Origin: a virus
Taxonomy: Duplodnaviria > Caudoviricetes
DNA: 31,739 nt
Strand: one strand, 5' to 3'
Virus record (IMG/VR): IMGVR_UViG_3300035164_000012
Span: 1 to 31,739 of that record
How positions within the stretch are numbered: position 1 is the stretch's first letter; each line of letters begins with the position of its first letter. Positions 23,075 to 31,739 of this stretch are shown here, one piece after another. Under the pieces are notes generated by a model that worked only from the letters and a program-made list of their open reading frames with translations, had not been told where the DNA came from and did no database searches. Both the position numbers and the translations under genes were made by a program.

Positions 23075-23103
23075 AATTTAACGTCTACAATATGTTTGTA
23101 AAG
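23075..23103 (-). promoter_or_regulatory. Promoter CTTTACAAAC-N13-TAAATT for candidate sRNA
   Basis: Same decamer, same spacing and same GT before the -10 as at 18858-18886. Confidence 0.55.
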
Positions 23104-23115
23104 CAAAACAAAGTT

Positions 23116-23280
23116 ATGTACAAAATTTTAAAACCTATACTGCTACGCTTTCTTACATCTACAGGTTGTAAAAGATTAATTGTAGATTTACTAAGGTCAA
23201 TTTGTAAGCAGACAACAAATACTTTAGATGATAAGGCTGTAGATATGTTAGAACAGCAATTATTTCCTAAATTAAATTAG
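23116..23280 (+). CDS. Small amphipathic-helix protein (54 aa)
   Basis: MYKILKPILLRFL...KRLIVDLL.....TTNTLDD.AV pattern, of a type recalled from cyanophages. Confidence 0.7.
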   Translation: MYKILKPILLRFLTSTGCKRLIVDLLRSICKQTTNTLDDKAVDMLEQQLFPKLN

Positions 23281-23285
23281 ACAAT

Positions 23286-23305
23286 AAAAAACCCCTTATG
23301 GGGTT
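23286..23305 (-). terminator. Rho-independent terminator ending the putative early operon
   Basis: AACCCC-ATAA-GGGGTT followed by TTTT on the minus strand, at a convergence point. Confidence 0.8.
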
Positions 23306-23308
23306 GTA

Positions 23309-23417
23309 AGTCAGGAGATAGATCAAGTCCAACACTTGCCCTGTCTTTCCTATAGTAGGTATTTTATAACTTTCAAGTTAGGGTATCTCACAAACCTAAC
23401 TATCAGGCTTCCCGACT
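23309..23417 (-). ncRNA. Candidate structured RNA (109 nt, multi-stem)
   Basis: Closing stem AGUCGGGA/UCCUGACU with nested stems GCCUG/CAGGGC, AGUUAGG/CCUAACU, CCUA/UAGG and CAAGU/ACUUG. Fills the gap between the last ORF and the terminator. Confidence 0.65.
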
Positions 23418-23426
23418 ATTTAGATT

Positions 23427-23618
23427 TTAATAAATGTCAACTATACATTCTGCCTGTTTTTCTATTGACTCTAAGATTAATTGAAATTCATATTGAACTT
23501 CTGGATTATCTTTAAAACTTTTTATTGTTGCCTTTAAAGACTCATGAACTAATCCATATTGATTATGTGATAAAACAATGCCTACGGCTCTTCTAGATGC
23601 TGATTTAAAACGTGTCAT
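23427..23618 (-). CDS. Hypothetical protein (early array)
   Basis: 63 aa, ATGA overlap with upstream gene. Confidence 0.7.
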   Translation of the reverse strand: MTRFKSASRRAVGIVLSHNQYGLVHESLKATIKSFKDNPEVQYEFQLILESIEKQAECIVDIY

Positions 23619-23818
23619 GATAAATAGTCCTGTGCTTTATAAATAAGATCAATAATTCCTTTATTCTTTGGATTATCATCTTGTAATTTACCTAGTAATA
23701 TATCTAGATCATTTACTAAATCAGCAGTATTAATATCAAAATTTTCTTTAAGTAGTCTTTGTTTTTTTTCTATTAAAGAAACAGCAATAATAAAAAATTG
23801 ATTTTCATTAAGTTTCAT
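23615..23818 (-). CDS. Hypothetical protein (early array)
   Basis: 67 aa, AAGGAGGT Shine-Dalgarno, ATGA overlap. Confidence 0.75.
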   Translation of the reverse strand: MKLNENQFFIIAVSLIEKKQRLLKENFDINTADLVNDLDILLGKLQDDNPKNKGIIDLIYKAQDYLS

Positions 23819-24018
23819 TTTTTTACCTCCTTAGAATACTTACCTTTTTCTATAAGCCAATCATATTTTTCAATAGACTTTTTGCAGTTTTGACATGATA
23901 ACTCTGACCATGAAAGATGATAAACCCTGCCTATGTTTTTGCAGTTAGGGCATTGTATTTTAGCCCCTGAATAGCGTTTACATCTTGAGAAACGTGTAAT
24001 AGGTACAAATATAGTCAT
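23815..24018 (-). CDS. Zinc-ribbon protein (early array)
   Basis: CPNC...VYHLSWSELSCQNC, perfect Shine-Dalgarno upstream. Confidence 0.8.
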   Translation of the reverse strand: MTIFVPITRFSRCKRYSGAKIQCPNCKNIGRVYHLSWSELSCQNCKKSIEKYDWLIEKGKYSKEVKK

Positions 24019-25002: not shown

Positions 25003-25031
25003 AATGTACATCAAGGGTATACCCCTGTCAA
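25003..25031 (-). promoter_or_regulatory. Strong sigma70-type promoter TTGACA-17-TACATT with GGGTATACCC operator in the spacer
   Basis: -35 at 25031-25026, -10 at 25008-25003, palindrome at 25015-25024. Confidence 0.85.
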
Positions 25032-30355: not shown

Positions 30356-31739
30356 TATTTAGCCCTTTTAAATTCTTCGACTTCTACTTTTAACTCTTTT
30401 ATAGCTTCTATAAGAACGCCTACCATTTTTCCATAATCAACAGATTGAACATCTTTTCCATGATGTGTACTTGTTTGTACAACTTCAGGTATTATTTCCT
30501 CTACTTCTTGTGCAATAACACCAATACTAGGCTGATTATTTTCTTTCCATTTATATGAAACACCTCTTAATTTTCTAACAGTGCTAAGTGCATTTTTAAT
30601 TGTTGATACATCTTTTTTAAGTTTAATATCAGAAAATGCAGTAATATTACCTGTAGCAGTTAAAGCACCTGTAACTGTTACACCTGCACTTGTAGTTTCA
30701 AACTTTTTACTGTTGTCGTAACGTAACTCTACAGTTCCATTAGGTACAAATTTAGCTATAGCGTCAGAATTATGTAAAATTTCTAAATTAAAAGCATTAG
30801 CTAAATTAATAGCATTAATAGTTGTATTATGATAAATTTCTAGATCGGTTCCAGCACCAAATAGTAGCTTTTTATGATCAGCAATAAAAACACTATCAGA
30901 AACATCTAATATTCCTGTTATATCTACGCCGTTGCTTTTTGTTTCTAGTTTTGTACTGTTGTCATATCTAAGTTGTACTTTGCCATTAGCAATGGCGTAA
31001 ATCATATATTCATTGCCAGCTTGATTTAAAATATAAATTGTATCTTGTTCAAGGAATAAAGGCCTACTATTTAGTGATTGTAGATAGTTACTATTATCTG
31101 ATAGATTGTGATAAATTTCTAAATCTGACCCTGTACCAAATATTGCTTTTCTATTATCTTGGAACAATAGGTTGCCACCATTTCCTAGTGACATTCTTAA
31201 GTTGTTATTAGTATAAAATTCTAATGATCCAGCATTTTCCTGTAACTTAGGACTAAAACCATCTGGGTTAGAGAAAAATATTGCTCCACCATCAGTACCA
31301 ACAGTTAAATTTCCAAAAAGTTGTGCACCCGCACTTTGAGTCTCAAACTTTTTACTGTTGTCGTAGTATAACTGTACGTTTCCATCATGGGTAACAATAA
31401 TTCCATCTTCATTGTCATGTGGTTGTATATAGATATTACTACCAACATCTGAATTTACGTTAGTTCTAATCGCTAAATGACCTGTATTATTATCTAAGTA
31501 TGTATTAGTTCCGTTGTGGTAAATTACAAAATCTCCACTATTACCAAACTGTACTGAGTTGCTGTCATCAATATTAATATTATGACCATTCGCATCTAAA
31601 GCACCACCTAGCTCTGGTGAGGTATCTTCTACTAAGCTTGAAATACCACTACCAGCATTTGCATCTACATAAGCTTTAACTGATTGTTGAGTTGGTACTT
31701 TTGTTGCTGAATTACTAGAAAAATTATCTTCATCTACAA
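30355..31739 (-). CDS. Tail fibre, C-terminal part with S74 intramolecular chaperone
   Basis: Frame is open from the window edge to 30355 (the track starts it at an internal Met at 31194). Three IYHN...YDNSxKxET modules, cleavage motif AFSDIKLKKDV, GVIAQEV, VDYGK, terminal coiled coil. Confidence 0.9.
   Translation of the reverse strand, partial: VDEDNFSSNSATKVPTQQSVKAYVDANAGSGISSLVEDTSPELGGALDANGHNINIDDSNSVQFGNSGDFVIYHNGTNTYLDNNTGHLAIRTNVNSDVGSNIYIQPHDNEDGIIVTHDGNVQLYYDNSKKFETQSAGAQLFGNLTVGTDGGAIFFSNPDGFSPKLQENAGSLEFYTNNNLRMSLGNGGNLLFQDNRKAIFGTGSDLEIYHNLSDNSNYLQSLNSRPLFLEQDTIYILNQAGNEYMIYAIANGKVQLRYDNSTKLETKSNGVDITGILDVSDSVFIADHKKLLFGAGTDLEIYHNTTINAINLANAFNLEILHNSDAIAKFVPNGTVELRYDNSKKFETTSAGVTVTGALTATGNITAFSDIKLKKDVSTIKNALSTVRKLRGVSYKWKENNQPSIGVIAQEVEEIIPEVVQTSTHHGKDVQSVDYGKMVGVLIEAIKELKVEVEEFKRAK
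31606..31739. repeat. Terminal direct repeat, right copy
   Basis: Matches 1-134, exact over the last 126 bp. Confidence 0.95.

Follow-up and report, generated by a model that had tools for sequence, protein, structure and literature searches.

What kind of RNA closes an array of small genes in a phage genome, and what does it do there? The question is raised by a 31,739-nucleotide viral contig (the window, below, means this whole stretch), on whose minus strand a preliminary description had drawn a multi-junction RNA at positions 23309-23417, at the 3' end of a putative early operon. The sequence and all of the quoted stems are present there, 9 nucleotides from the stop codon of the upstream ORF (23427-23618) and 3 nucleotides from the terminator stem at 23305. 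The minus-strand array of small ORFs that the element closes starts at a promoter-like sequence at 25031-25003. The features are collected in Table 1.

The 31.7-kb window, a phage contig, encodes lambda-like head and tail proteins, and a 133-nucleotide terminal repeat (2-134 and 31607-31739) marks it as probably a complete circular assembly. Neither an integrase nor a DNA polymerase was found among the 52 ORFs scanned, and the window contains no tRNA or tmRNA and no second copy of the element. The nearest relative of its terminase is that of Synechococcus phage S-CBS3 (44%). Of the 56 cultured phage records matched by the 62-residue gene adjoining the element, 53 bear the name Prochlorococcus, Synechococcus or cyanophage, and we accordingly infer a picocyanobacterial host. 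A contig from a sequencing run of unrecorded type (X7) joins positions 23419 and 23817, so that some relative would lack the last two small genes and carry the element behind a 67-residue gene (23815-24018), as it likewise does at loci L001, L023 and L047. In a seawater metatranscriptome, one 219-nucleotide contig of depth 6 spans 23265-23510; it carries neither strand nor ends and may be DNA, the two metatranscriptome sets (X1 and X2) resembling a single data set whose RNA nature is a guess. A palindromic GGGTATACCC-type motif recurs at three promoter-like sites in the window (25031-25003, 26773 and 7443; minus strand); 60 of 159 phage contexts also have it 3' of the element. It is a candidate operator.

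Table 1. Features of the element and its surroundings, in window coordinates.
Feature	Position	Strand	Basis or remark
Element, long junction-bearing relative of sRNA-Xcc1	23309..23417	-	covariation; model from host copies only, 80.5 bits
63-residue ORF, last of the small-gene early array, swapped among relatives	23427..23618	-	no PHROG or Pfam match
Convergent 62-residue cyanophage gene (phrog_2738)	23092..23280	+	database match
Hairpin and U tract like an intrinsic terminator, present in part of the family	23284..23305	-	sequence
Likely early promoter of the element-ended operon (TTGACA, palindromic spacer, TACATT)	25003..25031	-	consensus match only
P1 5' strand, 7 firm pairs from G2	23410..23417	-	pairs with 23309-23316
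P1 3' strand	23309..23316	-	covariation
P2 5' strand, CCU	23405..23407	-	pairs with RGG at 23339-23341
Inserted module without Xcc1 counterpart	23371..23404	-	GAN joiner 23402-23404, P3 hairpin 23376-23401, UGARA joiner 23371-23375
P4 arm	23343..23370	-	P4a 23368-23370 with 23343-23345; P4b hairpin 23349-23359
8x3 A-rich internal loop, T-loop-like	23360-23367 / 23346-23348	-	8-nucleotide pattern common to 22 of 23 Xcc1 members
P5 hairpin, variable loop	23324..23338	-	4 of 4 pairs covary
7-nucleotide joiner J5/1	23317..23323	-	A at position 5 in 113 of 114 distinct cores

Conservation and covariation of the element

The element is a genuine conserved structured RNA of about 110 nucleotides. The preliminary description had proposed to judge it by its folding against shuffled controls and by covariation among homologs. 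By the first measure the window sequence, folded alone, does no better than its shuffles (z -1.43; 14 of 200 equally good); its minimum free energy structure is without P3, and the consensus fold lies 8.4 kcal above that minimum. The homologs, however, do covary. One exact pattern recovered 77 viral loci, and more patterns, run on viral and metagenome contigs, gave 158 distinct phage versions drawn from 476 occurrences, many of them redundant; most matches to the loose patterns were chance and were discarded, and the counts omit partial or degenerate copies (such as L246, L292, L535 and L625), copies bearing N and loci whose flanks are short. A number of motifs were set by the parse, which also demanded P1 and three pairs of P3, so conservation there is partly built in; two-sided pair changes are not. 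When 58 versions (56 chosen to be diverse, and two that are GC-rich) are aligned with MAFFT, 98.8% of cells are paired and a compensatory change is seen at 17 of 28 pairs, which none of 500 shuffles matches; slid controls on the same alignment are only 24-50% paired. RNAalifold independently recovers P1, P3, P4b and P5, with P2 and P4a not recovered. Among 64 host copies placed on the model alignment, 21 of 28 pairs covary, with the caution that a fitted alignment leans to its structure.

Helices P1, P3, P4 and P5 as first drawn therefore hold, through covariation in the 58 sequences and agreement with RNAalifold. The strand had been called from a G-U pair in P1, and that argument also stands, the pair of G5 being G-U in 82 and G-C in 76 of the 158 versions. 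Loop lengths vary freely (the P3 arm from 10 to 112 nucleotides, the whole element from about 92 to 130) and the flanks are unrelated, while unpaired nucleotides stay near-invariant across 40% to 65% GC. Among natural variants L285, L323, L533 and L696, one is without P4b, two are without P5 and one has the 112-nucleotide P3 arm; they should help to delimit a minimal core.

Revised anatomy and kinship with sRNA-Xcc1

The element appears better drawn as two three-way junctions and an A-rich internal loop, a reading that follows from redrawing P2. Its order would be P1, a 2-nucleotide joiner, P2 (CCU/RGG), GAN, P3, UGARA, P4a, the 8x3 A-rich loop, P4b and a single A, with P5 directly after P2 and a 7-nucleotide joiner leading back to P1. 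The first pair of P1 is loose, formed in 134 of 158 phage versions and 35 of 64 host copies, and its eighth alternates among A-U, G-C and U-A. All six pairs of P3 covary in the 58-sequence alignment. The longer P2 of the preliminary description has no covarying pair among its five, and CCU/RGG with a P4a helix of 2-3 bp (GYN/RRC) fits better. The closing U of P2 is U-G in 143 and U-A in 15 of the 158 versions, in a motif fixed by the parse, and hosts show some one- and two-sided changes there. The middle pair of P4a is U-A in 86, C-G in 26, U-G in one and unpaired in one of 114 distinct cores, a change that is largely one switch between phages and hosts, though some hosts retain U-A or U-G. 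Two observations count against the redrawing: the original fold is 2.5 kcal lower in the window sequence (-21.8 versus -19.3), and the third P4a pair is unpaired in 33 of 64 host copies. The C for which P2 and P5 had been said to compete belongs to P5, whose first pair alternates among C-G, G-U and G-C.

A pseudoknot suggested earlier, between GAUA in the P3 loop and UAUC in the 3' joiner, is not conserved, the former occurring in 57, the latter in 59 and both in 30 of the 158 versions. Complements of any 4 bp between loop and joiner number 50 against 41.7 in shuffles, 32 of 1000 of which reach 50, a weak excess in a test that ignores relatedness. Nor do the distinct cores support covariation between loop and joiner.

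Three known motifs invite comparison with the joiners and the internal loop. The hammerhead core consists of a complete CUGANGA with an invariant GA, plus a UH cleavage site. The element does place a stem between CUGAN and GAAA within a three-way junction, but the two nucleotides after CUGAN are covarying P3 pairs (AG, GA, GC or GU), the cleavage triplet is absent and Rfam gives no match, in keeping with the earlier judgment that this is not a hammerhead. Between the GAN and UGARA joiners we predict tandem G.A pairs plus an N.U pair; the sequence pattern is conserved in the 114 cores, partly because search patterns fixed it, and the pairing is putative. Such tandem G.A/A.G pairs on one helix would recall the k-junction of the TPP riboswitch and DUF-3268, in which, according to extracts of PMC10573300, the third helix likewise leaves from the opposite strand after a 2-nucleotide connector (in the element RA, then P4a). 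The position equivalent to 2n is G in 111, A in two and U in one of the 114 cores. In its covariation-based fold the element differs in having 0-1 nucleotides between P2 and the first G, where the same extracts give a loop L1-L3 of about 3 nucleotides. For the T-loop pentanucleotide, the consensus stated in part of PMC7583486 is UGxRA. The UGARA of J3/4 fits it but is probably engaged in the G.A pairs; the internal loop resembles a T-loop whose third position varies, but matches the consensus imperfectly, reading U-A-x-A-A, with G at position 2 in one of 30 host cores and two of 23 Xcc1 members.

No Rfam family reaches its cut-off in the window, and at gathering level none matches the element in the window or in 40 loci. 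At E-value level, matches other than sRNA-Xcc1 (RF02221) were weak and chance-like, RsmY appearing once with 21.7 versus 57 bits. The preliminary description had found no family to assign: this is right as to Rfam membership, but it overlooked a clear relative, as well as the many copies in hosts. Model R2, built from host copies, saw neither the window nor Xcc1 in training; it gives the window 80.5 bits and, at E up to 1, falls on the Xcc1 RNA, in the right orientation, at 13 of 21 Xcc1 loci. The element is thus homologous to Xcc1, from which it differs by an added junction and another genomic setting, and it lies outside Rfam membership. The cut-off for RF02221 is 53 bits; the best long form reaches 25 bits and the window gives no match. 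Host and GC-rich phage copies score 20-25 bits (a host copy 25 bits, E 0.026; a GC-rich phage copy, E 8e-4), and a search of seven host loci gave no Xcc1 match at E up to 1.

The comparison set for Xcc1 came from matches in 13 of 151 gammaproteobacterial genomes, two of them, unpublished, being set aside; 23 copies were compared. The two forms share, in the same order, a similar closing helix, a loop-bearing arm, a 3' hairpin and a joiner of about 7 nucleotides with a conserved A. In both, a short strand rich in purines faces the 8-nucleotide A-rich internal loop, whose pattern 22 of 23 Xcc1 members show; five of the six Xcc1 variants of this loop recur in phage copies, the sixth in a host copy; the arm with this loop is capped in both by a CCC/GGG-type hairpin. 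They also share a multi-copy habit on mobile DNA. Xcc1 differs in that its arm runs uninterrupted from P1 to the loop, by eye over a variable length of about 12-16 bp: the junction GAN-P3-UGARA of the cyanobacterial and phage form occurs in none of the 23 members. It differs in placement as well, since 22 of 23 members precede a ribosome-binding site and start codon within 60 nucleotides, whereas the long form mostly follows genes. It differs finally in range, the long form being found in cyanophages and picocyanobacteria and not in the sampled Gammaproteobacteria.

Published accounts, as far as extracts of them go, place Xcc1 in tandem in a Xylella island, adjoining C4 and isrK (PMC12189769), in APSE phages (bioRxiv 2020.03.17.996009) and in integron cassettes, ahead of symE (bioRxiv 2025.06.18.660453). 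Its Rfam structure has been revised, according to part of PMC11701678. Extracts elsewhere cite it as a virulence-linked trans-acting sRNA whose targets are predicted, not demonstrated, and the main text of a JAR3D survey does not mention it (PMC13085918). Titles and abstract openings in the literature describe no long form. PMC10690425 presents 8,495 viral candidate RNAs, and the element may be one of those without a name; its motifs find no match in four of that study's supplement files.

Distribution and genomic context

Model R1 found the element in one of 151 genomes sampled across the cyanobacterial phylum, in 14 of 151 from that genome's family and in 35 of 51 from one picocyanobacterial genus, with up to 22 copies each; with R2, 38 of 151 genomes from the order proved positive. 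These hosts appear to be picocyanobacteria, judged partly from their glutamine-II riboswitches and from DUF1651 genes, whose taxonomic range we take to agree with that call. Among 151 genomes of Gammaproteobacteria the long form was not found, and the lone weak match among 151 Pseudomonadota looks like a short RNA of the Xcc1 type. GTDB contigs scanned with a pattern had yielded 40 matches, none of them the element; the pattern missed the host copies, later found by the covariance model, because their fixed motif differs. Searches by blastn with four versions against 50,697 cultured phages, and with one against 72,556 plasmids, gave no meaningful match, and Synechococcus phage S-CBS3 has no model match. 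Of 80 loci that share the neighboring gene, 30 carry the element, and most of the others differ in gene order by eye.

Phage copies mostly lie at the ends of genes. A same-strand stop codon occurs within 30 nucleotides upstream in 150 of 159 phage contexts (median 6 nucleotides) and in 33 of 62 host contexts. The ORFs upstream are diverse, 93 of them falling into 28 protein clusters, so that no partner protein goes with the element. Next downstream, 53 of the 159 phage contexts have a terminator and 60 an early-type promoter, while 29 pass directly to the stop of a convergent gene. With such variable 3' neighbors, and with 106 of these contexts lacking a terminator, the element would in many phages be the sole strong 3' structure. 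In hosts a terminator starts 5-25 nucleotides downstream in 39 of 62 contexts, compared with one on the opposite-strand control. Contexts with a same-strand ORF that begins within 60 nucleotides downstream number 18 of 159 in phages and 11 of 62 in hosts, by a criterion slightly different from the gene-start test applied to Xcc1. In the GC-rich phage group, the element stands about 22 nucleotides ahead of a co-oriented gene that precedes the terminase genes, and two divergent phage copies sit behind a terminator.

Host copies are often clustered or close to tRNA genes, and their cassettes are laid out as promoter, gene, element and terminator. Genome G510 holds five dispersed copies of a unit of about 850 bp, consisting of promoter/leader, ORF, element and terminator and 97-99% identical within the unit; its ORF is Gln/Tyr-rich, looks secreted and has no Pfam match. 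In genome G519 the 3' end of this unit stands at contig ends in four copies. The unit contains no transposase, and no MITE-type target duplications were seen by eye.

Further modules accompany these genes. Host island genes (L821-L825, L734, L759) share a repeated promoter/leader module, like phage early promoter leaders, that ORF calls misread as an N-terminal extension. In 17 of 62 host contexts, an A/C-rich linker with a CUCACA motif lies 30 nucleotides 3' of P1; it would recall the Yfr1 motif or a vestigial leader. Directly 3' of some phage elements lies a second conserved module of about 55 nucleotides (L278, L218, L255, L189, L356, L510 and L533; also L025, L046 and L138); in seven variants a stem with a GAUAAGC loop is followed by its complement GCUUAUC just ahead of the terminator. 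From its sequence it looks like a self-addressed pseudoknot or switch; it has no Rfam match, and a hatchet-like reading finds no support in Rfam. A third conserved non-coding module, of C/G-rich hairpins in about a dozen variants (loci including L194, L210, L167, L225, L376 and L500), occupies the stretch that leads from the element or terminator to the convergent gene.

Candidate functions

An ordinary riboswitch is unlikely for the window element, as the preliminary description had also judged. Quite possibly, if still short of probably, the element is a cis-acting processing mark that is cut by a host RNase, possibly RNase P. On the mRNA it would fold into a compact, tRNA-like shape, in which the T-loop-like internal loop would take up the invariant A of J5/1 and the tandem G.A pairs would bend P3 away. 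P1, P2 and P4a would stack as 7+3+2 or 3 pairs, that is, 12-13 bp from G2 to the internal loop, which is about as long as the acceptor and T stem of tRNA together. A host ribonuclease, predicted to be RNase P, would then cut at the foot of the closing helix P1, a cut likely to end the upstream message and free a stable small RNA, and one that may affect mRNA lifetime.

Several observations are consistent with such a mark. A 7-bp helix starting with G is present, as in the acceptor helices of tRNA-like substrates that RNase P cleaves on the 5' side, the cut itself being a prediction. The Rfam model of Xcc1, of 87 positions, begins at P1. The position behind the stops of unrelated genes, the varied 3' neighbors, the host copy numbers, the dispersed G510 unit and the adjacency of C4, isrK and Xcc1 in Xylella also fit. 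Extracts of PMC2996969 report for Xcc1 a single Northern band of about 100 nucleotides, 88 by RACE, and by analogy with that band a discrete processed RNA is plausible. Bacterial RNase P cleaves non-tRNA substrates that include the phage c4 precursor (PMC4919922, in part). The near-invariant unpaired core exceeds what a plain hairpin barrier needs, which argues that a specific fold or reader is required. On the other side, the tRNA-like reading must accommodate a non-cloverleaf, in which the loop arm follows the 5' strand of P1 and the 7-nucleotide joiner precedes its 3' strand, a second T-loop position that is mostly A rather than G, the seemingly variable length from P1 to the loop in Xcc1, and a consensus fold that in the window sequence lies above the energy minimum. 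The ends of Xcc1 could also stem from its own promoter, and its placement before genes suggests a regulatory leader, which counts against a processing mark.

It is unlikely that the released 3'-UTR RNA acts in trans, as a decoy or sponge for a protein such as a host RNase, an RNA-binding protein or a tRNA-directed defense. The conserved faces are unpaired and tertiary-like rather than seed-like, nearly all relatives of the window's phage group carry the element, the window and five complete or partial phage records tested have one copy each, and the title of Chen 2011 calls Xcc1 trans-acting. Hosts, however, carry 1-22 copies tied to cassette ends, an arrangement that a trans-acting factor does not need, and a host benefits little from a sponge directed by phages against defense. 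Many copies per chromosome, typically just after the stops of unrelated genes, favor action in cis, and the anti-defense sponge that the preliminary description had offered is accordingly disfavored.

More doubtful still is a c4-like attenuator, in which P1 would compete with the downstream terminator or a nearby antisense target and so gate read-through. The c4 antisense RNA of phages P1 and P7 (RF01695) is, in extracts of PMC4919922, a small phage-operon RNA processed by RNase P, and it neighbors Xcc1 in Xylella (PMC12189769, in part). The host terminators 5-25 nucleotides downstream would suit this reading, as would terminator arms that resemble P1 strands, the ORF starts close downstream (above all in Xcc1) and the seven phage variants with a second self-complementary module ahead of the terminator. 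Yet the element's flanks, searched for 300 nucleotides on each side and, for the window copy, through the whole window, have no complementary target sites such as c4 has. The longest complement within 300 nucleotides shows no excess, observed over shuffled lengths being 7.45/7.42 upstream and 7.74/7.56 downstream in phages and 7.07/7.10 and 7.43/7.13 in hosts, and a copy of P1 within 80 nucleotides is seen for 0-1 of 125 elements in phages and 0-1 of 30 in hosts. Native pairs of element and terminator barely beat swapped ones (27 and 16 of 200 swaps as good in hosts, 67 and 87 of 200 in phages), so that co-adaptation is not significant, though hosts lean slightly that way, and the phage contexts that lack a terminator also speak against attenuation. 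The RF01695 model matched in none of five genomes, where controls also gave no match.

We give little credence to an undescribed class of self-cleaving ribozyme that would set the 3' end of its carrier mRNA without a host enzyme. The element is compact, has two junctions with near-invariant unpaired nucleotides, has spread in multiple copies on phage and island DNA and is present where a terminator is absent; on the other hand models of known ribozymes give no match at E up to 10, part of the hammerhead core is missing, no pseudoknot is conserved, and half of the inner junction is missing from Xcc1. Just as doubtful is its extension, that the Xcc1 scaffold as a whole is an unrecognized self-cleaving class whose enlarged form excises itself from phage early and host island transcripts; if true, the mobile gene pool of picocyanobacteria would have a portable, protein-free 3'-end module.

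Least credible is a single-stranded DNA signal for recombination or mobility at cassette ends, like attC or REP, with incidental transcription: gene content does shift at the element's 5' edge (the 23419-23817 joint, from the run of unrecorded type), the G510 unit ends just past element and terminator, Xcc1 is placed in integron cassettes by extracts of bioRxiv 2025.06.18.660453 and one host copy has an ORF resembling a Y1 transposase some 3.5 kb away, but G-U pairs abound on the transcribed strand together with apparent RNA-type motifs (tandem G.A, T-loop-like loop), the dispersed unit shows neither target duplication by eye nor a transposase, Xcc1 is an expressed RNA (PMC2996969, in part), and shared modules can anchor recombination whatever their function.

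The long form, with its inserted junction, enlarges a known but poorly understood bacterial small RNA. The phage and host alignments reveal which nucleotides matter, and the many picocyanobacterial copies make cleavage, ends and structure directly testable. The shared cassette design of promoter, gene, element and terminator links cyanophage early operons with host genomic islands. The extra junction of this relative, its occurrence in another phylum and its position at the other end of genes suggest that the Xcc1 family serves mobile DNA as a portable cis-acting module.
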